Below, one piece after another: positions 6,565-33,929 of a stretch of DNA of 54,677 bases (its first letter is position 1; each line of letters opens with the position of its first letter). The notes under the pieces are model-generated. The model was not told the DNA's origin. It did not search any database and saw only the letters and a list, made by a program, of their open reading frames with translations. Where the stretch lies: assembly GCA_001938485.1 (NCBI GenBank), contig MQRK01216544.1, positions 28,637 through 83,313 of the forward strand, in the 5' to 3' direction. The translations under genes were made by a program, and so were the position numbers. The stretch comes from Girardia tigrina. Lineage: Eukaryota.

Positions 6565-6948
6565 TTACTTTTCCTTTTCTTCAGCTTTCTTTGGCAATAA
6601 AGCACCTTGAATATTTGGCATTACTCCACCTTGAGAAATTGTAACTCCACCCAACAATTTGTTCAATTCCTCATCATTACGAATTGCCAATTGCAAGTGT
6701 CTCGGAATAATACGAGTCTTTTTGTTATCTCTGGCAGCATTACCAGCTAACTCAAGAACTTCGGCAGTCAAATATTCAAGAACTGCAGCCAAATAAACTG
6801 GAGCTCCCGCTCCGACTCTTTCAGCGAAATTACCCTTTCTTAATTTACGATGAATTCTTCCGACAGGAAATTGAAGACCAGCGCGAGAACTACGGCTTTT
6901 AGTAGTAGATTTAGCTCCTTTAGTTAATTTACCAGCTTTTCCAGACAT
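6565..6948 (-). CDS. H2A: Histone H2A, intronless, replication-dependent type
   Basis: Intact 127-aa ORF with [71 protein letters not shown] and LLPKK. Stem-loop downstream; no SQ(E/D) H2A.X tail. Confidence 0.97.
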
Positions 6949-8719
6949 TTTAAAAATTATTTATGTTTCCATGAATTTTCTCTCTTATTTATGTAAAAAA
7001 ATGTATGTAAATATCATTACGTTGAGGTATTTAATTTGAAAAATATTTTAAAATTTGAATATAAACATATTTTGAAAATTAAATTGGCAGCGTAATACAC
7101 ATAAATAAGCTTTATAAAAACTCGGTAATCTTTTTTAAGAGTTTATATAATTTTAAAAATATTTTTAATGTTTTCATTTAAAAAGTTTCGAAATATTGAG
7201 CTATTTTTACCTTACTTAATTGATTATTAATATTATTAAAATAACATTATAATCCTTTTTAAGTGTGAATTCTTTAATTTCAATCAATTCTTTTCGTAAA
7301 GTAATGTAATCTTTTAAATTTTTTTTTGCCTTTTTTGAGAAAACAATAAATGTATATTAAAAGATTCGATATTATATTCCAATATCCAGGAGGTTCCTTG
7401 AAAAGAAATGCTACAATTCATAGATAATATGGATCATAAAATGTATAATTAAACTGATCCTCAGCTTCAAAAATATCTAGCAAAGCTTTAATGAATTGTA
7501 TATTAGTTTGATTAAAAATCATTTGTAAAAAATATTTTCCAAAACTAATTATAATTGAAGAAATAGTCTTTGTTCACAAGGCGTCAATAGAAATTATTGT
7601 TGAGAAAACGAAATTGTTTGACGAACAATTATGATTTCAACTAAAATCATACACTACAAACAGTAACAAAGTAAGAATTAGTAATTAAAACTTAAACCTT
7701 TTTTCTTCTATTTATATCGTTTGAAAAAGAACTAATAAAAGTGTTGAAGGAGACATTCTAAATTACAGAAAATGATCTCTACAAATTATTCATTAATTTA
7801 GGAATTTTAAAAATTTATTTAACTTTTTAACAGAATGGCGAAAATAACGATATTTTAATATACTAAATTACAAATGGATATAGAGGAATGAAACAAAAAT
7901 AGAAAATCGTCGCACTGGATTAAGTTTCTGTTATTTTACCACATTCATCATTATCTATATCTGCGTCTTCATTTGTAGGTTAATCCTCATTTTCAGAAAG
8001 GCGTTTGATCTCAATTTCAAATAAAAACGGTTAAAAAATTAACGCAAAAACCCTGCATTTCAATAAACGGCGCCCCGTTTATTCAAGGAAATACGGTATC
8101 TCTCTTCGTCTGTTTGTGTGTTTCCGTATTTGCTACAAATTTTACAAACGATTTTCATTAATTTTCCATAGTCCGATTGAGCTGAAATTTTCCCTTATTG
8201 TGTAATTTCGATGACAATACATGAATAAATTAAAAGACTTACTAAATAAATGAATAATTAGAGAAAAAAAGCGTTTATCGGATTATTCAAAAAAATGTTT
8301 ATAAAGTATCTAGACTTTTGTTTAAAAATTGTCAATTAAATTTGTTTTTTCATAACTTTTTTTTCTTCATAACTTTTTAAATTTTTATTTTTTTTCTTAA
8401 TAAATATATTTTGGATTCCTTACTGATGATAGTTAATTGAGTTATTGTTAATTGTCTAAAATTGACATTTATTTTCTTTTCTGTTTTATTAAAAAATCCA
8501 AAATCGTTACAATGTTCCGATTAATAAATATACTTTTCCATCGACAATACACAAATTTTAAATTTAGAGCCTCTTCAAACTTTTATTTGAAAGATTTAAA
8601 CAATACGCATTTATTATAAAACATGCATTATAAAAAACAATAAAAACATACGCTAAAAGTCATAAAAACATTCAAACATCATACCCAAATTACACGAAAT
8701 AAATAATCATAATTTACAA

Positions 8720-11420
8720 ATTATCTTTACATTTGTATTCTTCAAGCTGTAATTTATATATGCTTGTATGTGGTTTACTGATTAAAATTGCTGGACCTGT
8801 GTAGAGATCTCCATCTTTTGTTGTGCTTTCCTTATTTATTGATACATAGTCTCTAAGTTCAAAAGTTCTCATTGTTGGTATTTTATTTTGTTATGGTATT
8901 TTATTTTCATATTTCTGAAATCTTTCCACCAATGTTTCAATTTCCGTCCCCAAATGATTTCTATTGGGGATATTCCTGTACTTGCCTGGACTGTACTATT
9001 TATCATGAATTCAATATCGGGTAGAATTTTGCCCAGTCTTTGTGAACTATATCTTATTAATTCAATCAATAATTTTTCGAAACTGTATTTTAATCATTCA
9101 ATTTACCTGATGATGGTAATATAACTTGAATATATTATTTGACTGTTAAATCTGTTTACTATTTATTGTCGCGATTCAAATGTCTTACCTCTATCTAAAT
9201 GAATTTCCTTAGACTGACCATTTCTCCAAATCCATCTTTCTAATAGTATTGTCCATATAGTATTTTTTCATCTTGATGAATCCCAGAATTTAAGCATATA
9301 AACCCACTAAAATGATCAATTATTTCTAAAATATACTCATATTCATAATCAATTCTCTTTGCCGATCCACAAAAGTGAACATATATTTTTTGAAATGGCA
9401 CAGGTGATATATGTTTAATGGTTCCATGACAATTCGACACAAGACAATTCGACACACGACAATTCGACACAAGACAATTCGACACAAGACAATTCGACAC
9501 AAGACAATTCGACACAAGACAATTCGACACACGTACAATTCGACACAAGACAATTCGACACATTTTTTTAATGGGACAAATATTTTATTTCGACATTTTT
9601 AAATTTCGATTAGTTTTTTTTAATTCAACACTTTTTTTTAATTCGACCAATAACTAAAATGAAATATTTTCATTATTAATATACATTTTTTGAAACTCGA
9701 CATTTTCAATAACTATATTTTTGGTTAGACTAATGAGTTTTTCTGTATTTAATATGAAAAAATATCAATTTAATATGAAAAAAAATCAATTTTTATGAAA
9801 AAATATGTATTTACTATGAAAAATATGTATTTAATATAAAAATATTATTTTAATATGAAAAAATCAAATTTTATTAAAAAATATGTATTTAACACGAAAA
9901 ATATGTATTTAATATAAAAATATTATTTTAATATGAAAAAAATCAAATTTTATTAAAAAATATGTATTTAACACGAAAAATATGTATTTAATATAAAAAT
10001 ATTATTTTAATATGAAAAAAATCAAATTTTAGTAAAACATATGTATTTAACATGAAAAATATGTATTTAATATAAAAATATGTATTTAATATAAAAATAT
10101 CATTTTAATATGAAAAAAATCAATTCTCACATATTTTTTATCAACTTATATTGAGGGTGCTCTTGGTAGAGCTCCTCAGTTTCCAATAAAATGCTGGAAC
10201 CATTTCGATTCTGCTGGTTAGCAGACACCAAAAACTAAAAATTGTTGTGAAGATTTCCACAATTTTCTTAATTCTATATTTCAATGCAGCCACCCCAGTG
10301 TTTGGACCTTGCTTGATGGACTTGGAAGAGATATAGCTTGTCACAGACTGACTTTGGCAAATGCTCTGTCAGGTCGCCCTGTGGTTGTAAAGAAAAAATA
10401 TGTATCATTGAGTGAGGCTATTGCAATGGCTGTGCAAGAATACAATTTGAATGCTTCGAATGATGAAAAACTGAAATACTTGCGTTGGCTAGTTAATTTG
10501 CAATGGATAAAATGTTAAAAATTAACTTTTACTGTGTTGAATTAATAAATGTGTAGAATTAAAAAATTTTGTCGTCTTATTGACATTTTTCATATTAAAT
10601 TGATTTTGTATATAAAATATACAAAAATTGAAATCTACGTTCAAAATAATATGGCAGGCTGAATTGTAAACGAATGCATTTTTAAAACATTAGTTCATAT
10701 TAAATTGATATTTTTATATTAAATACATATTTTTCATATTAANNNNNNNNNNNNNNNNNNNNNNNNNNNNNNNNNNNNNNNNNNNNNNNNNNNNNNNNCA
10801 TATTAAATACAGAAAAACTCATTAGTCTAACCAAAAATATAGTTATTGAAAATGTCGAGTTTCAAAAAATGTATAGTAATAATGAAAATATTTCATTTTA
10901 GTTATTGGTCGAATTAAAAAAAAGTGTTGAATTAAAAAAAACTAATCGAAATTTAAAAATGTCGAAATAAAATATTTGTCCCATTAAAAAAATGTGTCGA
11001 ATTGTCTTGTGTCGAATTGTCTTGTGTCGAATTGTCTGTGTCGAATTGTCTGTGTCGAATTGTCGTGTGTCGAATTGTCTGGTTACCATGTTTAATAATG
11101 TCTACTTTTTGTTTTCGAAATAAATGTCTTTCTTTTTCTACAGGTTGAGCCTCTGCAGCATTTGTTCATTCGCACTATTCATACCAAGATCATCTTTGAG
11201 ATAAGTATACACTTTTTACTACGCGCGTGACATAATGGAGATTGGTTGTAAAAGAAATATTGTATAAATATTAGAATAGTTTGTGTAAATTTTTGGTTGC
11301 TGTGAGTGAATTTCATTCTGTTACTTATATCTATTGGAATCCATGTGCAACCCGAGAGTAACAAGTTCTACTATATATGTGCGCATAATTTCTGAGGTCT
11401 GTTGTTTGTTCTGTGTAACT
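8720..11420 (-). pseudogene. Ty3/Gypsy integrase remnant, split by the MULE insertion at 9420-11087
   Basis: Motifs PFQKIYVHFCG, YILEIIDHFSGFI, LPDIEFMINSTVQASTGISPIEIIWGR and a GPY-like YTGPA. The LCHA zinc-domain part lies beyond 11088. Similar to the integrase in the 52570-54021 ORF. Confidence 0.7.
9420..11087 (+). mobile_element. Non-autonomous Mutator-like (MULE) element with long TIRs
   Basis: Exact 9-bp TSD atgtttaat at 9411-9419 and 11088-11096. GG...CC termini and ~340-bp TIRs containing 15-bp (aattcgacacaagac)n arrays. Internal ~10150-10518 encodes a MULE C-terminal remnant (PQFPIKCWNH...PKTKNCCEDFH...HPSVWTLL). Confidence 0.88.
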
Positions 11421-11822: not shown

Positions 11823-13797
11823 CAGTGGTTACCTAAATTCCTTGCCAGGCGCCCCCCTAAATACAAAGAAACATTTTGGCGCCCCCTACATGTTCCACCA
11901 GGATATATGGTGTTATAGAAACGCTTAAATTATTATTATTATTAAGATAATTTTTAAATTAAATTTTAATTTAACACATGGACTGTGTGTTTCATCGTAA
12001 ATTCTCAGTCTACTTCCATGTTTGAAACGCATTCTACCTATCTATAGAAAACTTCATGAAAATAGGTTAAGCCCGTTTATTTTAAATATTCAAATCTACA
12101 TCATCTTCATTCAATTTGTTCTTAATCTCAATATTTAGGTAAGTAGGTTGAGAATACTGTTCATAAATGGTCACTCGGCTTTCATGATACTTAAAAACCT
12201 TGTTCCCATTTATGAATGTCTTTTCCAAGGGGTAAGACATCGTTGATATGTAATTACAATAAATACTTGCATTTGCTTTTGAATAATTTTTATACTTAAT
12301 ATTTGTACACTAACCATCTTTCGATATTTATTTATAATAAATTTCATTTTATAAATCTGTTTCAAACTGTTTGAAACAGTTTTAGATTAATAAATAAATA
12401 GATCAATGTAGTTAATGATAATTCTCAGTTGTTTAAATAATCGAAAGTCTCGGCGGGCGTTTAAAAGGAAAGTAAATCTTACTGACTTTTGTTTATTGCT
12501 TTACTTTTCAGCTTATCATTTTACAATCAATTAATTATCTAATTTTACCAACTACGTAAGCTATTTTACAATAAAAATGTACTTATTTTATTCTTGTTTC
12601 AAGATACCACTCAAAAATGGATAAGTGGATAAGTAAGAAACGCAAGGCAGATGACTCCCAAGACGCGTCTAAATCCAGTGAAAGTAATTCAAATGAAGAG
12701 GCCCAGTCAATAAACATTGACAACTTCAATGTTAAGAAAAAGTTCATTCCCAAAAGATGTAAGTTGAGGAAGTATCAAGAAGATTATATAAAATTTGGCT
12801 TTACATTTAATTAAATTGGAAGTACATAACTTCCACAATGCGTTATTTGCTCGGAAATTTTGGCTAATGACAGTTTAAAACCAAAGAATTTATGGCGACA
12901 TTTAATAGCAAAGCACCCAATTATTGCTGAAAAGCCTGTCGAGTATTTTGAACGTAAGAGCATGGAGTTACAAAAGCAAGTAGCTCTCATGAACAAAATA
13001 ACAACGACATCATCAAGAGCTCTCCTTGCTTCTTTTGAAGTGTCGTATTTGATAGCAATCGACAAGAAGCCTCATATAATTGCAGAAACTCTTGTGCTTC
13101 CATCTGCAATGAAAATGTGTGAAATTATATATGGCAAAAAATTCTCAGAGGCTATGGAATCAATTCCATTATCAAACAACACTGTTTCTCGCCATATTCA
13201 AGAAATGTCCAATGATATTAAAGAGCAACTAATTGCTCGTCTTAAAGTTAGTGAGAAATTTTCCCTGCAAATTGACGAATCCAATGTAGTTGGCATGGCT
13301 GAACTACTTGTTTACGTGAGATCTTGTTTTGGTGATAAGTTACTGGAGGATATACTTTTTTGCCAAGTGCTTACTCAAACAACCACAGGAAACGATATAT
13401 TCAATATGCTAAATAACTTAATTTTAATTCCTACCTGTGTAAGAAGGCATTTTCCTCAATGGTAACAATTAAAACTAAATCTCGAAACCGTCTCCAAGTT
13501 GAAGGAGATCTTCGTCTTTCATTGTCACCAATTCAGCCAAGAATGGACCTTCTTTATTCAAATATACAATCCCATCCTTCCCATTAATTGTAATGATTGC
13601 ATATGACGCAATACTTTGCTTATTATTAATAAAGTAAAAACTTTTTTAATATATTCTTTTTATTTTATTATTTTATAATCAAATTATGTTAAAATTTAAT
13701 ACAGTTTGGTCTAGTATTTGTTCCCCAAAAATGTCTCAGCGCCCCATAAATGTTTCTGCACCCCATAAGGGGGCACCCCCCACTTTGGGAACCACTG
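11823..13797 (+). mobile_element. Buster/Charlie-type hAT transposon, internally deleted (ZBED5/SCAND3-like transposase fragments 12617-13587)
   Basis: TIRs cagtggtt... / ...aaccactg with exact 8-bp TSD atctaagg (central TA) at 11815-11822 and 13798-13805. BED finger CVICSEIL...LWRHLIAKH, FSLQIDES, then a direct jump to the C-terminal IKTKSRNRL...HPSH*. In-frame stop at 12812. Confidence 0.92.
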
Positions 13798-14586
13798 ATC
13801 TAAGGGATAATCACAGTTACGAGTCTATCGATAGGGCTATACTGGATATTAGTGTTGTGATATTGGTTTTTATTCACTTCTCTTTTAATAAATATTTGTT
13901 CTGATATCTTCATGTTCTGGTTTTTTCTTTTTGTTATTGTTGGTCTTCTTTTTTTTATTGATAAGATTGGAGTTTAAACAAGGTACGGAGCACAATAAAA
14001 ATATTTTATCTGGACTCGATAGCAACAAATCACAACAAAAAACCCCAATTCAATCCAAACCAACCAATGCATCAAAGCAAGAATGAAAATTATTCCAAAA
14101 ATTTATCATTCAAAAATCATTCGAGATAACGAAATTATAAAAATCAATTTTGACAACAATCACTTAATTTAATGCATATGTATTTTAAGAAAAATTGTTT
14201 CTATGAAGAAGAATTATGTTAATCTGATGTGTTAAAAAGAAATATATTTTTCACACATTTTCTCTGATTGATATTTACGAAAATAATATTTTATTAATTA
14301 AATCTATAGAATTCTAAATGATGAAGAATATTAAAATTTTGAATCTAAATCTCGATCAAAAACCTTGGATTTATTCATTATGAATTTCCCCTGCAGTCAC
14401 CATTCACATGTGATTTATTCGAAGTCTCGGAATCCAGAAGAATCATTCAATCGCTAAACAAATAATCTTACGTCATATTTGGAACGAAACAACCGCCAGT
14501 CGTGGATTAAACGAGAGAACCGACTCAGTTCGAAAGATTATCGAGCGGGATACGAATCACGATCAACATTGTCGCTAATTATCCGA

Positions 14587-14691
14587 CTAATCAATACTGC
14601 ACATGGGCTAATCAATACTGCACATGTGCTAATCAATACTGCACATGTGCTAATCAATACTGCACATGTGCTAATCAATACTACACATGTG
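14587..14691. repeat. Tandem repeat, 5 x 21 bp (ctaatcaatactgcacatgtg)
   Basis: Five contiguous units starting at 14587, 14608, 14629, 14650 and 14671. No spacers. Units contain the palindrome gcacatgtgc across their junctions. Confidence 0.95.
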
Positions 14692-15034
14692 TAGCTTACC
14701 TAGGCTTAGTGCAAGTGTGCAAAATCAATAATTTCACAATTGTACAAAGTGCAATATATTCATGTTTTTATATAATCTAGTTTAAAGTGGGGCAGAATGC
14801 CCATAGGGTATAGCCTAAGCTAGTAAGATATCGAAAATCAGCATGAACACATGTAACCCTAGGGAGAAACCCATATAGCCGGAATATGATCTTAGATTCT
14901 CGAAAAAAAAACAATGCATAATGCTTTATTTAGATGTTGTGTTTTATAGTGTAAAGTGAGGGAGAATCCCCATAGGGTATAAAGGGTGAAGAAAGCAAAA
15001 TATCAAAAATTTGTTTGAACAAATGGATAGTAAC

Positions 15035-16094
15035 TCATATATGAATAGTCAGATTCAATATCAACATTTTTGAAAAAATCGATACGTAGTGCTTTTTCGA
15101 ATATATGCACATTATGTGTGCAAATATTATATTATAGATATGTATTATATTATGATATTTGATGTGACCAGGGTCACCGATATCGGTCGCGTGGATTATT
15201 GCGTCCGCCCCGGTCACGTTTAATTTGCCGCCCGCGTGACAGAATCCGTTTTGATGGTGATTGTTGTTGTGATTGTTGCTGTTGCTGTGGTTACCGGTGT
15301 TGATCGGAGCGATTTGTAGCGGCCCCGAGCAACTCGACGACAAATCCACCGCTCCGATATTCCCATAGCAATTCATCGGGACCGACGAAAATTCTGATAG
15401 TTCTTCGGCTCTTCGCTTTTTCGACATCAAATATTTAGAATTCGATCCGGCGGTGATTATTTTCCGATTGTTATTGGAATTTTTGGCGTTATCGACCGAG
15501 GAAGAAGCGATCAATGTCGACGAGCAGCAATCGGACAACAACTCCATCCCGACTATCGGACCGCCGTTCCTTAAATACGCAAAACTTTTCGCGGGATTCG
15601 CGGCGAATGGAAGTGGTTCATTTGACCCATCGATTTGATTCGAGCGTTTGGTCGATTCTTCACTCGAATAATCGATCGATTTCGGTTCTGCATCAAACGC
15701 GTTGCACATGTTGATGTTGGCAGCAATTTTCTCTTCTCTCGCTGACTTGAGCGCGCTGATCTGCAGATAGTCGGCACATACGAACATGTCGATGCAGTGC
15801 TCATTGGACACGCTAGCGCCACGACCCGCGCTGTACAGGAACAGCAGACAGTTCCTGATTTCCGCCGCCGACACGATTTCACTCAGCTGCGTTTGCTCCG
15901 CATTCGGATTGAAATTCAAGAATGCCTTGAAATATTCGGAACCGGCGTAAAGAAAAAATCTGTGACAGCGAATTCGCTGTTCGTTCACCACGATCGAGAA
16001 ATCACTGAACAAACAGATCTCGAACAAATGCAAATTGTTCGCTATGATGTGATTGAGGCGTTTGTCGTGTTTGAATAAAGAAATTGGAATTCAT
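15035..16094 (-). pseudogene. GC-rich chimeric ORF: Kelch-like BTB/POZ domain fused to an unrelated low-complexity segment
   Basis: FSDFSIVVNEQRIRCHRFFLYAGSEYFKAFL...LLFLYS...ADYLQISALK is a clear BTB signature. It breaks off at the start of the BACK region (NINMCNAF). The frame is open upstream to ~16090 and the nearest ATG (16094) is out of frame. Confidence 0.7.
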
Positions 16095-16199
16095 TTTTTA
16101 ATCAAAATATTTATTAAATTACATATCACTTAAAGAAAACTCTTAATTGGTTGCTACTGTTGATGCTATTTAGTGAACACTACAATATTATACTATGTT

Positions 16200-16900
16200 A
16201 TCAACCAATATCGTATCAACCATTCAAAACATTACCGTATCCAAGGTGATATCGTCATGCATTCATCGTGTCAACGTATTGTATCCATCATGTTAACGTT
16301 TTGCTTCCATCATATCAATACACAGCTGAACATGTAAAAAATACTGAAAATGCTGAATAATATATAAAGTACTTAAAAGAACTACATTATCAATCATTAC
16401 CATCATGCTATCAACCATCACATTTACCTTAACCACCATAAAAATCACCATATCAATTATCAAATATACCTTATCAGCCATATATCAACCTTCAAATATA
16501 CCATATCAACTATTAAATATACCTCAACAACCATCAAAATCACCTCATCAAACATACCACCAACCATCACATTTACCTCAACAACCATCAAAATCATCAT
16601 ATCAACTATCCAATATACCTTATCAGTCATACAATCAACTATCAAATTTACCTCAAAAACCATCAAAATTACCATATCAACCATTAAAAACACCTTATTA
16701 GCCATATCATCAACCATCAAAATTACCATATACCTTATCAGATATATCATCAGCTATCAAATATACCTTAACAACCATATTATTAACCATCAAAATCACC
16801 TCTTGAACAGCCATTTGTATATAAAAACCTTCAAATCTACCTTAACAGCGATAAAAAGTGACCCTAATTGTATCAACCATTATCTTATCAACCTTTAGTG
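16200..16900. repeat. Degenerate C/A-rich minisatellite (~21-bp unit, e.g. caaccatcaaaatcacct...)
   Basis: Recurrent accatcaaaat / atcaactatcaaat motifs with strong strand bias. The translation shows a 7-aa periodicity (QQPSKSP / QLSNIPY). Confidence 0.8.
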
Positions 16901-16934
16901 ATTCACAACACAGTTCAAATGTTTCTATGGTGTT

Positions 16935-17228
16935 TTATATGTTATATATTATATTATTATCTATTTGTAATATATAATGGTTATATAGCACACTGAAACT
17001 TGATTCATCAAAGTATATGCAATCTATGTTGATGAAGATATATGTAATGCATGTCTTATAGTATATACCTCTACTCATATATTGATATACATAACATAAA
17101 ACATCACCGTCAACGAAAATATTGATTGGTTGCACAATTGTACATCTTTCTATTGCGGAACTATATTTCTCATATTCATATATATCTATAGTATTAATAT
17201 GTTGATCATAATCATTTATGATTTCCAT
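16935..17228 (-). CDS. Hypothetical small ORF (97 aa, Ile/Tyr-rich)
   Basis: ATG-started open frame in very AT-rich DNA, co-oriented with the 17613-18002 ORF. No recognisable motif. Confidence 0.3.
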   Translation of the reverse strand: MEIINDYDQHINTIDIYEYEKYSSAIERCTIVQPINIFVDGDVLCYVYQYMSRGIYYKTCITYIFINIDCIYFDESSFSVLYNHYILQIDNNIIYNI

Positions 17229-17612
17229 AGATTGTATACTAATAAGTGCATTACCTCACGGACATTATTTCTAGTGAATGATCCACTTGTATATATAGTA
17301 CATATGTAAATAAATAAATGTTCTTTATAACCTTGTTACATTTTAATTCAATTAAAGGTTAATAAAATAATTATTTCAGAAAGTAACATGTAAAACATTT
17401 GTTAACGTGATGATAATAATTCAAGTTAATCTATACTATACACAAATGCAAAAATTCTCCATTCATTTCTAAATTCAGCTTTACTATCTCTAATACATAT
17501 TTCATTTATGTTACTATATCAATTTTAACAAATGTATTAACCTATTTTATATAAAATCAAGACTAAATTATTACAAGATTTATTAACACAACAATACAAT
17601 TTGTATAAACAA

Positions 17613-18163
17613 TTAAATACAACGAATTTCTAACAATTTCCATATTGGATAATTTTTACCATCTTTTTCTTTTCTTCCTTGTATGCATATTTTGATAAAT
17701 GCTCTGGAATAATTAGACAAGCCCATTGCTGGTATGCCATGACCCCTAAAATCTCTGAATTTTAATCCATCGTCTGAACGTAAATTTTGTTCTCTAAGCT
17801 GACTCAGCTTTCCATCTGGTCTTGCTCCTACTTCTTGTAGGGCTACATTTAGAAGATCATAATTGCGATCACTTATACCCATTACATGGAAGTTGAATTT
17901 ACTCTTTCTAATATGTACTGGATCAGTCAATTCAATTAATTTTGGACATTTCAAAAACTGTATATGGTATCCCTTATAGTTTGTTGATGGTTTAAACGCC
18001 ATGTTGATGGATTTATTTGTGAAGTCTTCTTTATTCGCATTGTCTTTCTTAGTGAATATTTTGTTTGAGCAGCATTTATCTCTTCAGCAACTTAGTTAGT
18101 CTTTTTAAATCTTTCATTATCAATGTGCAACTTTACTTCAGCAGCAGTTTGATTTTGATACAT
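17613..18163 (-). CDS. Hypothetical protein (129-aa intact C-part; disrupted N-extension from ATG 18163)
   Basis: Complex, protein-like composition. The upstream frame MYQNQTAAEVKLHIDNERFKK has one stop and a frameshift before MAFKPS. Confidence 0.5.
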
Positions 18164-18713
18164 CTTGAAATATTAAGAGAAAAAAATGATTTGAGTATGG
18201 AGCGAAAAAAAACTCACCATTTTCTTAACCAGATTTTAAAATAATGGCAGATGTCTGATTAGAAATTTAAAATATTGATTAAATTTTAAATTTTAAATTC
18301 AAATTCAAATTTGAATTGTAATCATTACGTTAACATTCATTTTTAAGAAAGCAAAATATGAAAATGGCGACATGGCTCTGAAATAAAACCTTAACAAAAA
18401 ACAAAGGTTTAATCATTAAAGAGACAGAAACGGTGTTAGATCCAGTTACCACTATGTCAAGTGGAAAAATTATGAAGATATCCTGTTCTCAGGTTCAACC
18501 TCTCAGAAAAGTAATCAATATATGAAAATTCTAATTGCACATTCACATAGAGAATCAAAATGTGTATCAAACACATGATATCGATTTTTGACACTAGTAC
18601 TTTTAAAAAATTTTATGTATTGATTTTTGCACTTGCACATGTGCAACTTAGAAAGCACTGTGCTAGCACATTAGAAATGTGCGGCACAATGTAGATTAGC
18701 ACTTTTTTATTCG

Positions 18714-19074
18714 GTTGCTATGGAAAGGTTGACGGTTGCTATGGATACGGTAAGCGTTACCATGGTTACAACAGCCTTGAATCGCTGTATCCGTTGGTAA
18801 TGAAAAACGTCCCTTGGTTACCGTTGCTATGGTAACTAAGACCTTGGTTACCGTTACCAAGTGAACCGAAACCGTTGGCAAGGTGATCGGAACCGTTGCA
18901 AGGGTGATCGCAACCGTTACTAGGGTGATCGCGAACGTTACTAGAGAATCACCGACCAATCAGAAGTGTTTTTGGTTAATCGCGACCTTTGCTAGGGTAC
19001 CGGGAACCAATCAGAAGCGTTTCAAAGTGAGCCGGAACCGTTGCTATGGTTAACGCGACCGTTGCCATGGCAAC
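18714..19074. promoter_or_regulatory. Array of RFX X-box-like motifs with two CCAAT (NF-Y-type) boxes
   Basis: Perfect GTTGCCATGGCAAC at 19061-19074. Strong variants at 18735, 18756 and 18823; weaker ones at 18714, 18853, 18874, 18895, 18916, 18937 and 19040. accaatcagaag at ~18955 and ~19006. Confidence 0.65.
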
Positions 19075-22060
19075 GGGTGACTGGACCACCCCCCCGGGGG
19101 TCAATTATTGATTGAGGGTGAGTCCCAATTTTCCCCTACTAAAATATTCTTTGAAGGGGTTTGTAAGAAAATTAAATATTAAAAATTTTTTTTAATAACT
19201 TGTTTAAATAATTTTACTTTAAAATAATTTTTACTTTTAATTTTAAATGGAAAAAATAATTTTCTGGAAATAAATATAGTTAACATAGTGAACTAAGGGG
19301 TTAATTAGACATTTCAAATAAATGTGCCCAAATAAATTTTCATTCCACTTGAAACTTTCTTACAAGCCATCACGGCATGTGTTCCGCCCGATTGCTCTGG
19401 TTGCTCTGAAGACGGGACGGAGGTAGCAGAGGTGAGTACTGGGAGCTCGGACTCGTTGTGCTGGGGGTCCATATCATATTGAGTTCGTTCAAACAGATCA
19501 TATTTAGTACAAAAACAAATTTAATTGTTCACAATAAATCGAACGTAATAAAAAATTTCAAATCGTTTCTTTAACAACAAAATTAATCAAATCACTTTTC
19601 TCTTTTTATCACCCAAAATGTAATTGTTTTTATCAACAAATGATTCAATAGTGTTCCACCTGATTTTCGAGTTGCCTCGAGAACCAGACGGAGGAAGCAT
19701 GTGGTAACGATGAACATTTCCGGATAGCGTGCGGGGCCCGTATTTGATAGCATAATCTTCCCTTCTTCGATAGACACAAGTAAAAAAGAATTATCTGATT
19801 GAGCACATTCACCAATCGGGACTTGATACGATACTGTATGATTCCGCAAGTATTAAATTGGGTGCATAAATATTGTATCAAATTATATCTGAGCATTTTG
19901 TTTCGCATTTCATGCAGGGCATCATTGAAATTTGAGATCAATTCACTCATCAGCTGTACGATTACAGCTTGAAAAGCAAATGTTTCAGTTTGCCTATCCG
20001 TCATATCAATTTTTGAAGTTGGTATTTCAGGACTCGATAAAATAAAAATCGAGTAACTTCATCTTGAAAACTGAACTGGTGCTTTTGGCACGAAACTCTT
20101 TTCTCTCAGACGTGAATTTCGTGAAGCAAATCATGCTGGCTTTCGACATACCATCAAATTCGAAATATTCATCGAAATAATTATAAAAGATATTAAACAA
20201 CGCTTCTTCGAAATTCTTAAATTTTAAATGTCAAAAAATGGCCGATTTAATCGACGCCAGAGCGCAGTTAAATTCGATTACATTATCAATAAATTTCAAA
20301 TTTGAAAATCGATGTGAGTAACGATAGAAGTTTTTAAATTATTGCAATTGTTGGGAGCGTTGTTGAGTTCATAAAATTTTTTGAATTTACAATCTTATCA
20401 AATTAATAATTAAACAATTACATTCCATAACATATGTTAAAATTATATATTAATTCCATAGATATGTTAAAATAAGATTTTCAGAAATTTAATATAAAAA
20501 TTAATTTATGTTAAGAAATAAAATAAATTTTACGGTAGGTTTATAAAAAGATTTATGCAAAGATTTATTATAAATTAAAAAAAGTTAATTTCAATTTTGA
20601 TGAAAATATTTAATTGAAATAAAATCAAAAGTAATATAAAGTTTAATATTTTATTCGCGAAATGAAAGTAAACTAAACTATTTTTTTGGTAACTTTTATT
20701 TTACACGATTAAATCGAAGTAAATTAAAAATGTAATTATATCTTTTTAGAAATTGTAATTGGAATCAAAATATAATTGTAAAACAATTAAATCGACTTAA
20801 ATGAAAATGCGATTTTAATTTTATTTTGGAAAGCGTAATTATTAATGGAAATATAATTTTATTTTTTTATGTAAAAAGGGGTAATTTAAAAGTTGTTAAA
20901 TTAAACGAAATTGCGATTTTAAATTCTATTTTCAAAACATTATTTTACTAAATCTAATGTAATTTTAAAACTATTATGAAAACGAAATGACAAATGCTAT
21001 TGTGTAGAATTGGGAAATTTAATTGAGAGACAGGTAAATTTAAATGTACATTAAAATTGAAATTTAATAAAATTGAAATTAAATCTTTGTGACAAAATTT
21101 TAATAAATTCACTTTATATTTTTTATTAAAAAAAGTATAGAATTTTAATTCGCAAAAAATATAATAACCATATTTATATAAATTCTTATTTAGTTTGTGT
21201 AAAAAAGAAAGAGCAAATGTTCCTCGAAAATATTTCTTTAAAAAACTTAAATTGCGGTAGAAATAAAGTTTTGTGTTAATGACAACTTCTTTTGATCAAG
21301 AACCCAATAACAATTATATTGATTTTTAACAATAATTAAAAAATTGATATTTGGATGAAGATTTTTCAATCGATGCAATATTTTATTTTTTCAAAAAAAG
21401 TTTCAGCTGCAACTTACAAATTTTCAAATTTACAGCAAATATTTGGAAATTCCCACTTTATCATCATACTTCAACAAACAAATTCTCATAGCGATGACAA
21501 CAACAAATTCGTTCGAAAATTATCTCTCTTACTCAAAATATACAAAATCGTCAATTATCAAAGCGAAAAACAATCTCTGTCAAAATTTCGCCACATAAAC
21601 AATTTTAATCTTCAATGACGCCTTGAAACAAACGCATTTTTTAACCATTTATTTTCATTTGTATAATTTATTTTTAATTTAATTACTTTTTTTCTCTTAA
21701 TATTTATTTACAATATATATAATTATATAACAACAAAAAATAAATATATTACAGGATGTCATTTCAAATTAAGGGTTAAGTGTTCCTATTCGAGACTTCG
21801 AGAAAAGAGAGAGAGAATTAAATTCTTATAATAATAACCAAAACATTATATAAATTATGATAACAATTTTGAACTCCGAACAAATAGTTTTTATCAACAT
21901 TTTTAAAAAATGAACATCAATCACTAACATAATAAATTTGATTCAGTTTTATAATTTGAAATAAACGAACAAGTTATTTTGTTTGACTCTATTATTTATT
22001 TCATTTGATATTAATTTCAGTATTCAAAATAAAGCATCAACACAATTCATCATCTCAAAA

Positions 22061-23802: not shown

Positions 23803-24531
23803 CTAGTTATTTTTATCTTTATTGCTTTTATTTTTGTTTGTATTATCCTTAATTTTATTATTATTTTTGTAATTATTTTTATTATTTATTTTTATATAAA
23901 TATATATAATAATAACACAAGGACATACGTTTATTAATCGTCCGAAAGCGCCGACCAACTTTGGAATATCTGAATACTTGGTCTTTCTTTCGCAATTATT
24001 GGAACCACTTGAGGAGCCACCGATGAAATAATCTGGTTGAAACAATTTCCCAAGATTCGAATTCAGAGCGTAATCGAGAGTGGTACTATTCAATTCAACC
24101 ACGACGCTGATCGGCACACACTCTCCATGAACTCCCGAAGTAATGTAAACGTCAATTCTCTGTAATTGCAAATCACTGTCGCTTTCGTGAACGCCAGTGA
24201 TCGGTTTGACACCGTCTATGTTGGTGATTATTTTCCAAAACTTCATTCCCATACTGTTTTTACAACTTTGAAATATTCTCATTAATTTATACCATTTATC
24301 ATGAATGTCTTCACAAAATTTGATATGCAATCTCCAATCGAGAATTATTACATGATTATCTTCAAATGTCTTTACAAAATAATCCACATTAAAAATATAG
24401 TCGAATGGCATGAATAATTTTCTTAGATAATAATTGAAATCAATATTTCTCATATCATTCTTTATTATTATATATTTACAAATTAACGGAGTTACCGCGA
24501 ATATAAAAACAATATTAAACGTTTTAAACAA
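23803..24531 (-). CDS. Hypothetical protein (up to 242 aa; first ATG ~24453), unassigned
   Basis: Long uninterrupted frame with complex composition in AT-rich DNA. The last ~35 codons run into simple AT repeats. Confidence 0.5.
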   Translation of the reverse strand: MFKTFNIVFIFAVTPLICKYIIIKNDMRNIDFNYYLRKLFMPFDYIFNVDYFVKTFEDNHVIILDWRLHIKFCEDIHDKWYKLMRIFQSCKNSMGMKFWKIITNIDGVKPITGVHESDSDLQLQRIDVYITSGVHGECVPISVVVELNSTTLDYALNSNLGKLFQPDYFIGGSSSGSNNCERKTKYSDIPKLVGAFGRLINVCPCVIIIYIYIKINNKNNYKNNNKIKDNTNKNKSNKDKNN

Positions 24532-29543: not shown

Positions 29544-29909
29544 ACGGATAACATGAAATAGTAGGACACCTACTATTTTAATAGTAGGTGGAAAAAAAAT
29601 TGAAAAGGCGCCCAATATTGGTTTACACCTACTATTTGGTGCTNNNNNNNNNNNNNNNNNNNNNNNNNNNNNNNNNNNNNNNNNNNNNNNNNNNNNNNNN
29701 NNNNNNNNNNNNNNNNNNNNNNNNNNNNNNNNNNNNNNNNNNNNNNNNNNNNNNNNNNNNNNNNNNNNNNNNNNNNNNNNNNNNNNNNNNNNAAAAACGA
29801 TACACCTACTATTTGATTCCACCTACTATTTTAATAGTAGGAGGAAATTTTTTTGAAAACTTCATTACACCTACTATTTCATGTCCACCTACTATTTGAT
29901 GTTATCCGT
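29544..29909. mobile_element. TA-flanked MITE with CACCTACTATT repeats (contains a gap)
   Basis: TIRs acggataacat / atgttatccgt, inserted in a (TA)n run. Second copy at window start. Confidence 0.82.
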
Positions 29910-29974
29910 TATATATATTAATATATATATAAAGATTTCATTAATATATATAATCTGAAAATATCACAATAACA

Positions 29975-30306
29975 AAGACAAGAAAAACCAGGAAAAATAT
30001 TTCCGAAGAAACATTCAACAACGTACTGCGTTTACATGATCAAGGAGTGGATGTATCAGATCGTATCAGAAGACAAATTTATAACTCAGAAGGGTGTTAA
30101 AAATCTTTAGATATAATCGGACATTTCCTTGTAAAATTTAGGTATTTTTAACCCTGCAAATACCAAAATTTTACAAGGAAATGTCCGATTATATCTGAAG
30201 ATTTTTAACATCCTTCTGAGTTATGGAGTTGTCTTCTGTTACTTCGGAAGTTTCTGTTTCTTTATTATGTTTCTTCGGAAACATTTTCCTGGTTTTTCTT
30301 GTCTTT
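29975..30306. repeat. Foldback / nested inverted repeat
   Basis: Outer arms ~29975-30012 and ~30268-30306. Inner arms ~30068-30147 and ~30158-30238 with a ~10-nt loop. Confidence 0.85.
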
Positions 30307-30309
30307 ATA

Positions 30310-33085
30310 TAGATCTCGCCGCGCTGAATAAGAAACACTTTTAACCACCTGTTCTTAAAGCCTAGAACTCGAGATATTCGACATTTTTAGGTTTCAAAAT
30401 TTTTTTTGAATTTTATGTCAAAAGATAAAAAAAAACAAAGGGTGAATTTATTATTTATTCATCAAAGTCATCACTAAAATGATAATCAATGTAAAAATGA
30501 TTAAAATAAAGTAGTGATTTGTACCAGGAACAAATAAGAAAATGTATCTCTCCGCATTACAACTGCAAACATGTTAGAGGCACATTATTGAAACAAAAAT
30601 CTGTAGGATTTACAAACTGTTCATAATCATCAATGTAACCGCAACAAAACCAAGCATATTTCCAAGTATTGACATATCTTGGAGATGAAAATTGATTATG
30701 AATAAGAGAGTGAATTTTGATGATTTCATCTTTTAAGTAAAGCGGTAGATTAATCGAATGAAGTAACACAAAATCTGAAAATTTACGATAATAGTTTTTG
30801 TATACACGCAAAAATATCTATCTAAAGGTTGACACATCCCTGTAGTTTTAGGTGGAATCATCACGATTTTCAAATTCTTATTCTGTTCTTCAGAAGCCAT
30901 CTTCAAACTGTCATCATTATAACAGCTCCATGAATCAACAAGTAGAAAAGATTCTTCGCCAATATTTGGGAGGAAAACCTTCCTTATCCACTCATGTAAA
31001 TGCGCCTTACCCAATTTACCCGATGATGATGCAAGTAGATAGATGTTATTTGACCTAAAAACCTTTTTCGCAACTTGTGAACCGAACTTTCCTCCAGCTT
31101 CTTGAAGAACGAGCAACATTGGGGATAGAAGACTACCACTCGCAGATATAATAGGTTGGATCGTATATGAATGAGTTGTAGCTTTTACTTGCTGAACAGC
31201 CACTTCAACAGTTTTTGATCCACAGGGTGCGAGGGTTCTTCCACTGTGCATTTCATAATTGAAACCAAATTGGTCAGTGTTGTAGACATCTGTAAGTGCC
31301 ATTTCGGCGATCTTTTTCTTTGTTTCTCCAACAAAGACAGTGGCTGATACAACATAATTTTCCATTAAATGCGATATTTTCAATGATATCATTTTGTTTA
31401 TTTTTCTCGATACAATCAGATTATGCTTTTTAAATTTGTGGAGCCAATGTGATTTGGCTTTAAAATTAAGTAAAGCTTGTGAGGAATGTTTTGAATTGTG
31501 TGTTGATATTGTGCATGTTGTATATTGATTCGGATTGCGCCTCTCCTACACAGATGGATGATTGGTATTTTCTTTGATTCTTTTTCTAATTAAAAATAAT
31601 TTAATTTAATTTAAAGTAAAAATATTTAAAATAGTTTTTGAATGTATTATTTATTTTTTAATGTAATTTAAAATTTTAATATATTAATTTAATATGTTCC
31701 TTTTAAAAAATGTTTAGATTTAATTTTAACCAATTAGATTCTTTATAATTAATAATTTTTATTCACAGATATTCATTTATTGAAAATAATTAGTTTGAAC
31801 TCATAAATATATTGATCAAGAGAGATGTCAAATAGTGAATGTGCTTGTGATATTAATAAAGGTTGTAAAACTCATATTGATGTTGTTAATAATGATATTT
31901 TTCGTGCTTTATCCAATGCCCATCTTCTTAAATCGTTTTCATGAATTATCATTTGCTTCGCAGTCAAACCTTTAAAAAGATCGGAAGTATGCTCTCAAAC
32001 TTTCCTAAGCTTTAGAGCTCATGAACCTCCTTTGTTTACAATATCTGCAAAACGATAGAGTTGTCGCCTGTCCTTGATGAAACGAAATCTGCGTTTCACA
32101 GTGGCAAAATGTAAAAGTTTCTTCTTTCCTGATTGCCAATATTCGACTGCAGCCCGCATTTGTTCAAAACTTATTTCATCAGTAGGACTACTGAAATTCT
32201 CATCATCTTCGATGGAAGAACAATCGTAGTCATCGCTATACGAAATATCGCTTGCATCAAATTTATCATCTTCAAATTCCGATGCATCTTGCATTATTAA
32301 ATTTGATTCGGTGGTAAAGACGATTTCTTCTCCAGTCAAGGAATCATCAAGAAGTTGCTTGATATGGACAAGTAATTCCATCGGTGTTGTCCCATTCTTC
32401 AATCGGTCTACAATATTCGCAATTAATTCCTCGGCCATCTTATGGGATGGTTCTTTAAATCAAAAATAATTGTTTCCTTGACTTACTTTATGTTATTTAT
32501 CACAAAAATGTATGTAGTCTTTCTTAAAAACCAACAAATTGAACACAATTTTAAATAAAATTTATTAACTACTTTAATGAAAACTAGTACATGAAATTTA
32601 GTGAATAAAACGTATTGATAACGAGAGAACATCTTTGGTGCCTAGGTAATTATATACGTTTAATAAACGTTGATTACCATAGAAATTTGCTTATATACAA
32701 ACAACACAGCAATATAGAAAAAAATGTCACGACAGCTTCGCTACGCGAAGCAATGTGGTTACTTGATGACTATGAACAGTTTGTAAATCCTACAGATTTT
32801 TGTTTCAATAATGTGCCTCTAACATGTTTGCAGTTGTAATGCGGAGAGATACATTTTCTTATTTGTTCCTGGTACAAATCACTACTTTATTTTAATCATT
32901 TTTACATTGATTATCATTTTAATGATGACTTTGATGAATAAATAATAAATTCACCTTTTGTTTTTTTATCTTTTGACATAAAATTCAAAAATATTTTGAA
33001 ACCTAAAAAAAAGTCGAATATCTCGAGTTCTAGGCTTTAAGAGCAGGTGTTTCAAAGTGAATCTTATTCAGCGCGGCGAGTTCTA
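30310..33085 (-). mobile_element. Tc4/Tc5-like (pogo-related DDE_1) transposon with ~320-bp TIRs; disrupted transposase ~32438 to 30455
   Basis: TIRs tagatctcgccgcgctgaataag... / ...cttattcagcgcggcgagttcta. CENP-B-type FKAKSHWLHKFKK, NTDQFGF, THSYTIQPIISASG, LLVDSWS, IPPKTTGMCQPLD. Confidence 0.88.
31478..31900 (+). mobile_element. LTR-like insertion interrupting the Tc5-like transposase
   Basis: Begins TGTGAGGAAT and resembles the reverse complement of 51770-51882 (tctcc...cagatgga..ttggtattt). The transposase frame resumes on both sides (WALDKAR | QALLNFKAK). Confidence 0.65.
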
Positions 33086-33929
33086 TATATGTACCAAATT
33101 TCATCGAAATCGGGCTGCGCGGGTTCAGGAGGTTCCCTAGTTAGTAAATTATTATTATTATATTATTTAATTATTTTTTCCTGGCGACTTAAAGTCGTTA
33201 GGGTAATTTAATATTTAATTTGAATTTACACTGATCAATTAATCGATCAGAAATAGAATAGTTGTTAAAATTAAGAAGTTGTAAATTTGTGGATTGATTG
33301 TATTAACTGTAACTTATTGTTGAATCTCTATTCGTGTATAATTCTCCTTCCCAATTTTTATTGTTGTCAAATCAAATCAGAAGATCCAAAGAAATAACTT
33401 ATTAAATCAAAAAAGTAATTATCGAAGTATCCATAACAAGAAAAATAATTCTGCAAACATTAAAAAATATATAAGAACAAATTTAAGGAAATCCATAATA
33501 ATTCTAAGTGAAAATGTCATTATATTGCTGAAACAAACTGAAAGTTTACATTGTGAAGTAATTTTCATTTCATTATATACGTTCTTAAAGCTGTATTTGT
33601 TATAATGTGATAAACCTATTATTCTTTTTTATCCTTCCGTTGACTAAATAGTATCATTTGTTATTCATATTTTTCATAACTAGTAAAAATAACGTTTGAT
33701 ATATTACATTAAACTTTAAATATTCTATTAAATCATATTAAATAGAAGGGAATCAACAATTTATTTTTGATTAAAGTCATTGTGATTTCTCTTTTAAACA
33801 AATTTTTAATTACGTTCATTGTTAAAAATAGGGTAATTATTAAATTTAGTTTTCTTTCATCAATACGTCTATCTTTACAATTATTATCCTTATTATTATT
33901 ATTATTACTATTATTATTATTATAAACAA

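Follow-up and report, generated by a model that had tools for sequence, protein, structure and literature searches.

An array of candidate RFX/MYB-type and CCAAT sites beside a virus-type gene in Girardia tigrina: a possible terminal repeat of a decayed integrated element

In a window of 54,677 nucleotides from the genome of Girardia tigrina (the whole stretch of DNA analysed here), a GC-rich block lies within AT-rich DNA, and the question raised by this locus is what the block is and which host factors it may once have recruited. An earlier note on the same DNA had described it as a helically phased array of RFX X-boxes and CCAAT boxes at a sharp, virus-like terminus. Our preferred reading, to which we assign a probability of roughly 0.5, is that an integrated virus of Maverick/Polinton-like kind left the block behind as an orphan terminal repeat, predicted to recruit host factors as an enhancer/promoter. 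The coordinates of the features are collected in Table 1.

Table 1. Features in and around the GC-rich block (positions of the window).
Feature	Position	Strand	Remarks
Five 21-bp tandem units and flank	14587..14783	+	inverted relative of 18553-18702
Broken gene for a T7 gp2.5-like SSB (a protein of the type binding single-stranded DNA)	17613..18220	-	homologues, breaks, fold
AT-rich presumed promoter of the SSB-like gene	18221..18400	-	presumed from position
Inner subterminal segment	18553..18702		CACATGTG and ATCAATA words; degenerate inverted relative at 14647-14783
Inner run, three 21-bp units	18714..18769	+	1-2 mismatches, without MYB core
Second zero-mismatch X-box	18823..18836	+	consensus scan
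Central run, five 21-bp units	18853..18950	+	weak X-boxes, 3-4 mismatches each; MYB-type core in 4/5
CCAAT box 1 (ACCAATCAGAAG)	18955..18966	+	sequence
CCAAT box 2 (ACCAATCAGAAG)	19006..19017	+	sequence; second copy of 51-bp unit
Outer run, three 21-bp units	19019..19074	+	units 19019, 19040, 19061 with 6, 2, 0 mismatches
Perfect 18-bp palindrome	19059..19076		X-box 19061-19074 and an MYB-type site on each strand
Branched (two-eared) hairpin	19083..19125		encloses the C/G palindrome described earlier
Candidate element end	19135..19140	-	5'-AGTAGG on minus (CCTACT on plus); equals tuatara Maverick end motif
Candidate 6-bp target site AAAATA	19141..19146	+	no partner found

The GC content of the block (18714-19140) is 49.9%, compared with 28.8% for the whole window and 16.3% for 19141-19300. 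The array, its coordinates, the perfect X-box at 19061, the two CCAAT boxes and the runs of exact 21-bp spacing (18714/18735/18756; five units from 18853 to 18937; 19040/19061) were all borne out. A unit at 19019 lengthens the outer run to three, and additional units outside the runs (18793, 18823 and 18988) bring the related units in 21-bp register to 14, spanning 18714-19074; the one at 18823 was absent from the earlier list. Mismatches were counted against GTTRCYATRGYAAC, which we take to be the X-box consensus and on which all mismatch counts rest; it is an IUPAC string used in place of a weight matrix. Scanned in this way, the block was enriched in X-box-like sites, with six sites at up to two mismatches against 0.02 ± 0.13 in dinucleotide shuffles (0/1000 shuffles reached six) and 10 sites at up to three mismatches against 0.18, while the rest of the window holds 4 and 23 such sites, respectively. 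Four of the 14 units have 4-6 mismatches. The 21-bp autocorrelation of the block is 0.452, compared with 0.249 ± 0.022. As for the CCAAT boxes, ACCAATCAGAAG was located at positions 18955 and 19006, and the 54,677 bases contain no further CCAATCAG; the two represent one module duplicated (51-bp unit, 31/51 identical). No second copy of the block was found in the window. A coding origin of the array was ruled out by stops or frame breaks in 6/6 frames, with no open frame running through it. Judged from its sequence, the array is a real cluster of candidate host transcription-factor sites, composed of RFX/MYB-type repeats and CCAAT boxes. Elsewhere in the window, 21-bp arrays unrelated to the X-box array are present at 14587 and 16482-16705.

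Constraint within the repeat is uneven, unlike that of a neutral minisatellite (p 0.001-0.017). When the register was taken from spacing alone, the eight adjacent unit pairs differed at 54 positions, never at GTT or at the A at +6, and the R and Y positions varied as the X-box allows. Within the unit, conservation peaks at ACCGTT (p 0.001 over 6 columns and 0.005-0.017 over 7-10); constraint is concentrated on motif positions, and this focus is common to the X-box and the MYB-type site. Substitutions that spare the motif columns set the array apart from the generic 21-bp minisatellite against which the earlier note had proposed to weigh it.

The conserved core would fit MYB as well as RFX. Nine MYB-type YAACGG sites overlap the units; shuffles contain 1.0 ± 1.0 (at most 5) and the remainder of the window 13. 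Two central units carry the MYB core and lack the RFX half-site. The combination of MYB and CCAAT sites is the usual make-up of G2/M promoters. The same element end could accordingly have been read by MYB, together with NF-Y, with cell-cycle or stem-cell/meiotic timing and with the X-box look partly a by-product of a palindromic seed. We regard this version as somewhat unlikely: no MYB core is present in the three inner units, which nevertheless retain 12-13/14 X-box positions, two units are full X-boxes, and the A at +6, which MYB does not need, never changes between neighbours. The two readings are compatible, and both can hold. RFX, the reader proposed earlier, keeps X-box matches above chance in its favour and is no longer the sole candidate, given the nine overlapping YAACGG sites; we rate binding of the array by RFX in vivo as slightly favoured. 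The related proposal that the sites face one side of the helix holds within runs and fails across the whole array. Gaps of 37, 30, 30, 51 and 31 bp between runs break the 21-bp register, which puts the central run out of phase by about 0.19 turn; two units are 0.33-0.48 turn off, and the phase resultant over the 14 units is 0.63 at 10.5 bp/turn.

At the outer edge of the block, the compositional step is genuine and most likely falls at 19139. The abrupt end placed previously at 19140 stands as a true step and not as an exact base, because the support interval covers 19126-19168. The 5'-AG end motif of Maverick/Polinton elements is present there as the family variant AGTAGG, read from 19140 to 19135. 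In the Maverick table of PMC8097293 (supplement), AGTAGG occurs 37 times and CCTACT 41 times, and 27 of the 30 rows listed are tuatara elements. Of 53,339 control positions, 719 have the end of one or another of three Maverick-type hexamers no more than 10 bp away, and the chance of such a motif within 10 bp of an edge is 0.5-1.4%. The C/G palindrome noted earlier is present inside the two-eared hairpin, whose stability is marginal: it folds at -10.8 to -11.2 kcal/mol, as well as which 16/5,411 49-nt windows fold, and with the X-boxes excluded its z is only -1.2 to -1.9 (equalled by 19 to 53 of 500 shuffles). The edge can be taken just as readily for that of a long terminal repeat (LTR), and a rolling-circle end also fits. 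Signatures of these kinds were found at control positions as follows: CTACT at 20/1,337, a purine tract before TG at 15/1,337, and TG..CA with a 5-bp duplication at 30/1,337; the LTR, CTACT and purine-tract signatures were all noticed after the fact.

Adjoining the array is the broken SSB-like gene, missed in the earlier note, which starts 494 bp inside the array and is read away from the candidate end. It comprises an ATG at 18220, a putative 54-bp GT-AG intron (18217-18164) and a coding part at 18163-17613 interrupted by one in-frame stop (18094-18092) and one frameshift (around 17993-18008). This copy is dead. Its presumed promoter and the region upstream of histone H2A share the word ATTACGT. 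Seven relatives of the protein were identified at 70-84% identity, which points to a family, as expected of a multi-copy element. The structure model (pLDDT 93.8) was built from an alignment of 23 sequences, none with an informative name, after two of the 13 representative matches (P0023 and P0030) had been excluded as repetitive false matches; it describes a minimal 128-residue domain ending at the last strand. Among solved structures it matched DUF2815 (Z 8.7, rmsd 2.9, 105 aligned), the Enc34 SSB (Z 8.2, rmsd 3.0, 103 aligned), T7 gp2.5 (Z 8.1, rmsd 2.9, 108 aligned) and ASFV CP312R (Z 7.3, rmsd 3.8, 124 aligned). A Z near 8 is a level rated common by the tool, and the case for the T7-like fold lies in the gap to the next row (Z 5.3) and in the fact that the top rows all belong to one family. 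On the basis of this model, the product is predicted to have a T7-type OB fold and to bind single-stranded DNA. In addition, 23 viral structure models matched at E <= 0.001 (18 named, 5 unnamed), and judging from their names we take 18/18 of the named ones to be nucleocytoviruses.

Other searches gave less. Foldseek against solved structures returned a best E of 0.13, with the Enc34 SSB in the top rows. Pfam matched 0/1 of the SSB-like window frame, with only weak matches for its homologues; the protein had no PHROGs match below E 0.02 and no match below E 0.1 in a sequence search of solved structures, and its first Atlas match (E 0.87) was to an unrelated family. Relatives were found neither in phage or plasmid records nor in prokaryotic genomes. 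T7-like SSBs are described as virus-specific in the cited passages of PMC4889955. Together, the adjoining T7-like SSB fold and the Maverick end hexamer support the earlier view of the edge as the terminus of a virus-like element, and the array and the SSB-like gene probably belong to one element.

The block may form the outer portion of a terminal repeat. Its element would be decayed, integrated and DNA-virus-like, most likely of Maverick/Polinton type, and only one end and the first gene would survive in the window. The 21-bp unit, an RFX half-site fused to an MYB-type core, would have been amplified by tandem duplication, and the unit-plus-CCAAT module duplicated once. In the intact element, host RFX and/or MYB together with NF-Y would bind beside the genome end, open chromatin and drive the inward-reading first gene, whose product would be an SSB for single-stranded replication intermediates. 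The bound factors may also assist initiation at the genome end. The array would in this way resemble those portions of adenovirus and AAV terminal repeats to which factors bind. A role in replication initiation seems unlikely to us, and timing to ciliated or germ cells is doubtful.

Polinton class as such falls slightly short of even odds. The length of the putative terminal repeat, 430-590 bp, lies within the range given for Maverick terminal inverted repeats (402 ± 276 bp), and accessory ORFs flank the core of Mavericks, according to the material cited. The earlier note had pointed to the 5'-AG of Maverick/Polinton ends; the window holds no partner end, no 6-bp duplication and no core gene. 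For these reasons, and because the SSB type is atypical of protein-primed viruses, the element is not assigned to Polinton; the SSBs of such viruses are described as having no relation to the OB fold (PMC4889955, cited passages). The apparent intron of the SSB-like gene also counts against Maverick, whose intact vertebrate ORFs are intronless in the source consulted. The paired termini and 6-bp target duplications that the Polinton idea called for were looked for within the window and neither was found: it contains no inverted copy of the end or of the array and no left end with AAAATA plus AGT, a combination restricted to positions 36283 and 36397, on the right-hand side of the block. The duplication would be impossible to see if the left end were lost, and no convincing left end was found in 13800-18715. 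In Pfam searches of 148 + 134 + 13 + 13 frames, no protein-primed polymerase, packaging ATPase or adenoviral-type protease was matched; integrase (rve) matches were confined to gypsy-type pol frames (47751-54027). Capsid and PZ/PW/PM genes had no family match in the window, and Pfam may not model them.

The inverted comparison of the inner subterminal segment with 14647-14783 scored 57 against 31.6 ± 4.4 in shuffles (0/300), the best tile in the window. The region 14587-14783 may be left over from the other end, or it may belong to a related element; its outer neighbour (14300-14600) bears no likeness to the array (195/300 shuffles as good). The idea that a minisatellite at 16380-16900 is a decayed version of the array in inverted orientation was rejected, with one unit matching at 15/21 and profile scores no better than background; its periods of 12, 21, 33, 42, 54 and 75 suggest a coding repeat. 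An ORF at 16938-17255 gave a weak PTEN_C2 match (E 0.005), an unusable model (pLDDT 48) and no homologue at 58-186 residues. A PTEN_C2-like domain as a Polinton trait found no support in the portions of Polinton papers searched. No RNA family was matched in the window at gathering score, nor in 14200-19400 at E 0.5.

Beyond the identity of the reader, the main competitor is an LTR, a distinctly unlikely reading in which the block is a U3 enhancer, either of a solo LTR (18589-19127) or of a minus-strand 3' LTR behind a polypurine tract, inserted next to the SSB-like gene; the RFX/MYB/NF-Y sites would then drive retrotransposon transcription, as in vertebrate LTRs. LTR sites for NF-Y, MYB and RFX1 are reported in the cited part of PMC10968565, and gypsy elements are present in the window. 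The 539-bp segment 18589-19127 starts with TG, ends with CA, has 5/7 inverted end bases and is bounded by ATTTT on both sides; 18628-19127 likewise has TG..CA ends with the ATTTT duplication, whose size is within the 4-6 bp expected of an LTR. A TG..CA frame with a duplication was found at 190/1,337 control positions, and at 30/1,337 with the inverted match too. On the minus strand, 19128-19140 forms a purine tract before TG, and one AATAAA (18706-18711) follows the array. Against this, each signature is found at 1-2% of control positions, the duplication and purine-tract readings are mutually exclusive, no primer-binding TGG follows the CA, gag-pol lies on neither side and there is no sister LTR. 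Furthermore, the inverted similarity to 14647-14783 continues about 35 bp past 18589, and a virus-specific gene 370 bp from the LTR would be left as coincidence.

A further alternative, which we consider improbable, is the end of a rolling-circle or rolling-hairpin element, either a Helitron-like transposon or a parvovirus-like or other small DNA virus, with the T7-like SSB replacing RPA, the hairpin as termination or origin, and the array as promoter. An intron is compatible with a Helitron gene, so that of the SSB-like gene suits this reading. The canonical Helitron 3' end is CTRR; here, the branched hairpin, 43 nt long compared with a GC-rich Helitron hairpin about 10 nt from the end, stops 10 nt before CTAC followed by T, and CTAA (19139-19142) is followed by A. 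CTAC departs from the canonical form, and such words lie within 10 bp of 164/1,337 control positions; the hairpin is only marginally stable, and 15 unpaired bases lie outside it. Neither Rep, RepHel, helicase, NS1, VP nor any other capsid gene was matched in the window, and the hairpin is not terminal, as a parvovirus element would require. In the passages cited, certain Helitrons code for RPA, which is an SSB, and take up pieces of genes (PMC6431247), some carry arrays of host-factor sites (PMC6927752), and the RFX site of AAV belongs to the D sequence, within a terminal repeat that is T-shaped (PMC5760533).

That the block is a GC-rich minisatellite without function, expanded from a single palindromic seed, is very improbable. 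Tandem Repeats Finder does report 18870-18944 as a 21-bp repeat, the window contains the two unrelated 21-bp arrays given above, and once one unit matches a motif all its copies match; what speaks against it is that substitutions spare the motif columns, that two unrelated motif types are interleaved, and that the block adjoins an end motif and a virus-type gene. The suggestion that the block, whatever its origin, has been co-opted and today serves the BCKDHA-like gene of the host as an enhancer can be set aside as extremely improbable: the 3,011 bp to the right that favour it were counted to the first recognisable exon (a weak match, E 0.11) and not to the true first exon, an Hsp90-like pseudogene with its own 5' region intervenes (E 0.0025), the element's own gene starts 494 bp away, a housekeeping mitochondrial enzyme would have no obvious use for such an enhancer, and the block bears no sign of host selection. 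Later BCKDHA-like exons match E1_dh at 34679, 39959 and 44821-45483. A pattern search found no heat-shock elements before the Hsp90-like piece, and an ORF at 23806-24441 was ruled out as a viral gene, being a tubulin fragment.

That viruses and transposons carry host-factor sites in their terminal repeats is a known principle, which the array taken by itself illustrates well without being a discovery. Less expected in an animal genome is the pairing of a Maverick-type end with a gene for a T7-like SSB, since the cited passages of PMC4889955 describe this SSB family in phages and in nucleocytoviruses, but not in protein-primed systems. The literature searched gave no description of an RFX/MYB array in Polinton terminal repeats or of a Polinton-borne T7-like SSB; for RFX sites in terminal repeats, the AAV paper was the one relevant among those listed. 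Such an SSB may be annotated in supplements or in Repbase. Should further copies bear out the link, the family of this SSB would become a marker for overlooked integrated viruses of animals, and the array a testable proposal for their expression trigger. An undescribed family of integrated DNA viruses of animals, with Maverick-type AGTAGG ends, a minimal spliced T7-like SSB and an amplified composite RFX/MYB plus NF-Y array tying viral expression and replication to host cell state, is an unlikely but attractive extension; if true, it would offer a direct handle on what switches Polintons on, the proposed states being multiciliated differentiation, meiosis or the stem-cell cycle. Planarian Polintons are de-silenced in epidermal and neuronal differentiation, and an RFX/MYB array could explain a pattern of this kind (PMC8532177, part cited). 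The block hints at how integrated elements borrow host factors, with binding and class as candidates.

Compared with known systems, the SSBs of T7 (gp2.5), Enc34, ASFV (CP312R) and nucleocytoviruses share the fold predicted here (Z 7.3-8.7 over 103-124 residues) at 6-13% identity, whereas our gene lies in an animal genome with a host-style layout. The acidic tail of gp2.5 is absent from the minimal 128-residue domain. The SXY module of MHC genes uses the vertebrate RFX5 complex. As described in the cited part of PMC7753138, an X-box-like site is followed there by ATTGG on the same strand, as in our block, at 17-18 bp compared with 27-28 bp from the end of the 14-mer here, the X-box limits not being on one definition. 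LTR U3 enhancers (ERV-9, PERV, Cer-SERV-2; PMC10968565, part cited) resemble the block in their repeated host-factor sites with CCAAT, size of about 500 bp and possible TG..CA ends; in contrast, our block lacks an internal domain, primer-binding site and sister LTR, and a gene of DNA-virus type lies next to it. The Caenorhabditis Helitrons that carry arrays of heat-shock elements (PMC6927752, part cited) are likewise mobile DNA with many copies of one host-factor site; the factor is another one, and our block has neither a canonical CTRR end nor RepHel. The AAV2 terminal repeat, in the passages of PMC5760533 cited, has one weak site in 145 nt, compared with 14 units in 360 bp here, where Rep and capsid are missing and the hairpin is neither terminal nor more than marginally stable. 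It nevertheless provides the precedent for RFX at a viral terminal repeat, since RFX1 and RFX3 bind its D sequence, an X-box-like site by a branched hairpin, as here, with host factors at the genome end. From the tuatara Maverick our element differs in showing no second end, duplication or core genes in the window and in its T7-like OB-fold SSB with an apparent intron; it agrees in its identical terminal hexamer, in a length within range and in an accessory gene beside the end, and, with 96% of vertebrate Maverick loci degraded in the part of PMC8097293 cited, the decayed orphan state seen here is shared as well.

The array of X-box (RFX) units and CCAAT boxes in the GC-rich block at 18714-19140 (GC content 49.9%) is a real feature, and everything that the earlier note listed in it was present at the positions claimed. 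The array comprises fourteen related units, with first bases at 18714, 18735, 18756, 18793, 18823, 18853, 18874, 18895, 18916, 18937, 18988, 19019, 19040, and 19061. Comparison with an X-box consensus gives zero mismatches for two of them, a single mismatch for one, two mismatches for three, and three mismatches for four; the other four carry four to six. Sites with at most two mismatches number six in the block against 0.02 in block shuffles (0/1000 reach that count), confirming the enrichment, and four more lie in the remaining 54 kb of the window. The 21-bp autocorrelation of the block was 0.452 compared with 0.249 ± 0.022, and the two occurrences of CCAATCAG in the window searched were confined to the block, within a duplicated 51-bp unit.

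When nothing but the exact 21-bp spacing was used to fix the register, eight pairs of adjoining units showed 54 differing positions, with zero changes in GTT and in the A six bases further on, and free variation at the two degenerate X-box positions. Across units, change was lowest in ACCGTT, at p 0.001 over six columns and 0.005-0.017 over wider windows, and no open reading frame runs through the array. This avoidance of GTT and A shows constraint on the repeat at the DNA level, and such non-random constraint at motif positions sets the array above a plain minisatellite. MYB is a rival to RFX as the reader: nine YAACGG sites overlap units (1.0 in shuffles, maximum 5), the most conserved columns are ACCGTT, and four of the five central units (18853-18937) carry a MYB core though they are poor X-boxes; however, the inner three units (18714-18756) are X-boxes without it. 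Judged by its motifs, the unit is best called a putative composite of an X-box and a MYB-type site. The suggested phasing on one helical face holds within runs, where the 21-bp spacing is exact, but fails for the whole array, where inter-run gaps of 37, 30, 30, 51, and 31 bp put the central run 0.19 turn out of phase and two units out by 0.33-0.48 turn. As unrelated 21-bp arrays exist nearby, the period needs no helical cause. X-box to Y (CCAAT) spacing is 27-28 bp, compared with an MHC-type 17-18 bp in the available text of PMC7753138, where the X-box limits are possibly defined differently.

Beside the array lies a broken gene absent from the earlier note, with an inferred 54-bp intron, one stop, and one frameshift, predicted to encode a T7 gp2.5-like protein that binds single-stranded DNA (an SSB). 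A search among 50% representatives gave 13 matches, two of them false; seven out of 13 candidates were relatives at 70-84% identity, and none of the relatives had a Pfam assignment or an informative name. Structure prediction for the unbroken domain together with 22 relatives yielded a model with pLDDT 93.8, and its best matches among 48,161 solved chains were DUF2815 (Z 8.7, rmsd 2.9, 105 aligned), Enc34 SSB (Z 8.2, rmsd 3.0, 103 aligned), T7 gp2.5 (Z 8.1, rmsd 2.9, 108 aligned), and ASFV CP312R (Z 7.3, rmsd 3.8, 124 aligned), the fifth dropping to Z 5.3; a repeat comparison gave the same picture. Viral structure models matching at E <= 0.001 numbered 23, including 18 named ones, all from nucleocytoviruses, and the model of Tetraselmis viridis virus S1, a Polinton-like virus, ranked 43 (E 0.005). 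A tree built from 18 rows placed the copy in the window within a supported (98/96) group of ten close relatives. According to the accessible part of PMC4889955, T7-like SSBs are virus-specific, and viruses with protein-primed polymerases have SSBs unrelated to the OB fold; the gene thus supports a virus-like element and fits poorly with a textbook Polinton. A 28-bp word of the presumed SSB promoter (18308-18335, minus strand) recurs inverted at 17400-17427 (plus strand), 900 bp off (24/28 identical, E 0.006); the extended alignment was not significant (31/300 shuffles).

The GC step of the edge is most likely at 19139 (support interval 19126 to 19168), and the minus-strand reading of the block begins AGTAGG. 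In the portions of PMC8097293 available, vertebrate Maverick ends are mostly (AGT)2 or (AG)3, and the supplementary table has AGTAGG 37 times and CCTACT 41 times, tuatara elements forming 27 of the 30 rows listed. A Maverick-type hexamer ended within 10 bp at 719 of 53,339 control positions. Two copies (98% identical) of a 114-bp repeat made of CACCTACTAT words, at 1-114 and 29798-29911, account for many CCTACT hexamers of the window. The end hexamer and an adjoining virus-type gene favour a Maverick-like terminus, whereas the window contains neither an inverted partner nor a 6-bp target duplication for an end at 19140, nor a second copy of the block, and the frames scanned gave no polymerase, ATPase, or protease match; the block is therefore not classed as a Polinton. 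A degenerate inverted relative is restricted to the inner 150 bp (18553-18702 against 14647-14783, score 57, 0/300 shuffles), and the outer neighbour of 14647-14783 has no likeness to the array. The stretch 14587-15025 forms a second motif-rich module, related to the block's inner flank.

Other readings of the edge are of similar rarity. An LTR would be framed by TG..CA at 18589-19127 with ATTTT on either side (30/1,337 control positions) or by a purine tract preceding TG (15/1,337). A Helitron end or AAV-like terminal repeat would account for the branched hairpin at 19083-19125, which stops 10 nt short of CTAC followed by T, but this hairpin is marginal without the X-boxes, 19 to 53 of 500 shuffles being equally stable. 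The edge itself is one copy, and the balance favours the Maverick-like reading because of the adjoining DNA-virus gene. That the block enhances the BCKDHA-like gene is a weak idea, since an Hsp90-like pseudogene lies between; this piece is oriented toward the block and ends about 200 bp before it, and no continuation was found across the block on the far side.

The window is an AT-rich animal scaffold (GC content 28.8%) with remains of hAT, Tc1/mariner, pogo, and gypsy transposons, and the BCKDHA-like gene has transposon-filled introns beside introns of only 40-55 bp. CpG observed/expected is 1.7 around the BTB-domain frame vs 0.46 in the SSB-like gene. One frame of the minisatellite at 16380-16900 reads as Tyr-Gln-Pro-Ser heptads, and no homologue of the 106-codon frame at 16938-17255 was found.

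Features of the window, by position
Feature	Position	Strand	Remarks
Histone H2A	6568-6960		
Inverted-repeat transposon	9428-11080		222-bp perfect arms, 15-bp subterminal arrays
hAT with BED finger	about 11825-13812		inverted-repeat transposon
21-bp tandem units	14587-14691		five near-perfect copies with CACATGTG and ATCAATA
76-bp direct repeat	14778-15025		follows the 21-bp units
BTB-domain frame	15038-16090	-	E 1.6e-12
Minisatellite	16380-16900		strongly strand-biased; GC skew to -1.0; periods multiples of three
106-codon frame	16938-17255	-	weak PTEN-C2 match, E 0.005
SSB-like gene	ATG 18220, coding part 18163-17613	-	starts 494 bp inside array; reads inward
Hsp90-like pseudogene piece	19350-20060	-	N-terminal match E 0.0025, with deletion
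E1-dehydrogenase (BCKDHA-like) gene	22151-45483	+	exons scattered across 23 kb
Beta-tubulin-like fragment, divergent	23806-24441	-	in BCKDHA-like intron; runs into Asn/Lys-rich repeat
Pogo-like inverted-repeat transposon	30306-33089		212-bp arms
28S rRNA fragment	about 44200-44530	-	E 1e-64; in BCKDHA-like intron; undetected by whole-window scan

We put at about one in two the probability that the block is an orphaned terminal repeat with an array that brought in host RFX and/or MYB together with NF-Y; these factors would switch on the inward-reading SSB gene, possibly with cell-type timing, and perhaps assist initiation at the genome end. The adenovirus origin uses host factors. For RFX at a viral end, the available text of PMC5760533 offers a precedent in AAV. 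RFX arrays in Polinton ends and a T7-like SSB in animal Polintons were not described in the accessible parts of the literature searched (including 10.1101/2023.08.22.554363, 10.64898/2026.10.13.758929, PMC11296320, PMC11131425, PMC11161782, PMC11464507, and PMC3014272), and supplements or repeat databases may contain either. It seems rather unlikely that the T7-like SSB marks, and the RFX/MYB array gates, a new family of integrated viruses in animals. Host-factor site arrays are known, from the portions available, in LTRs (PMC10968565) and Helitrons (PMC6927752; PMC6431247), and the block may work like viral terminal repeats that carry host-factor sites.
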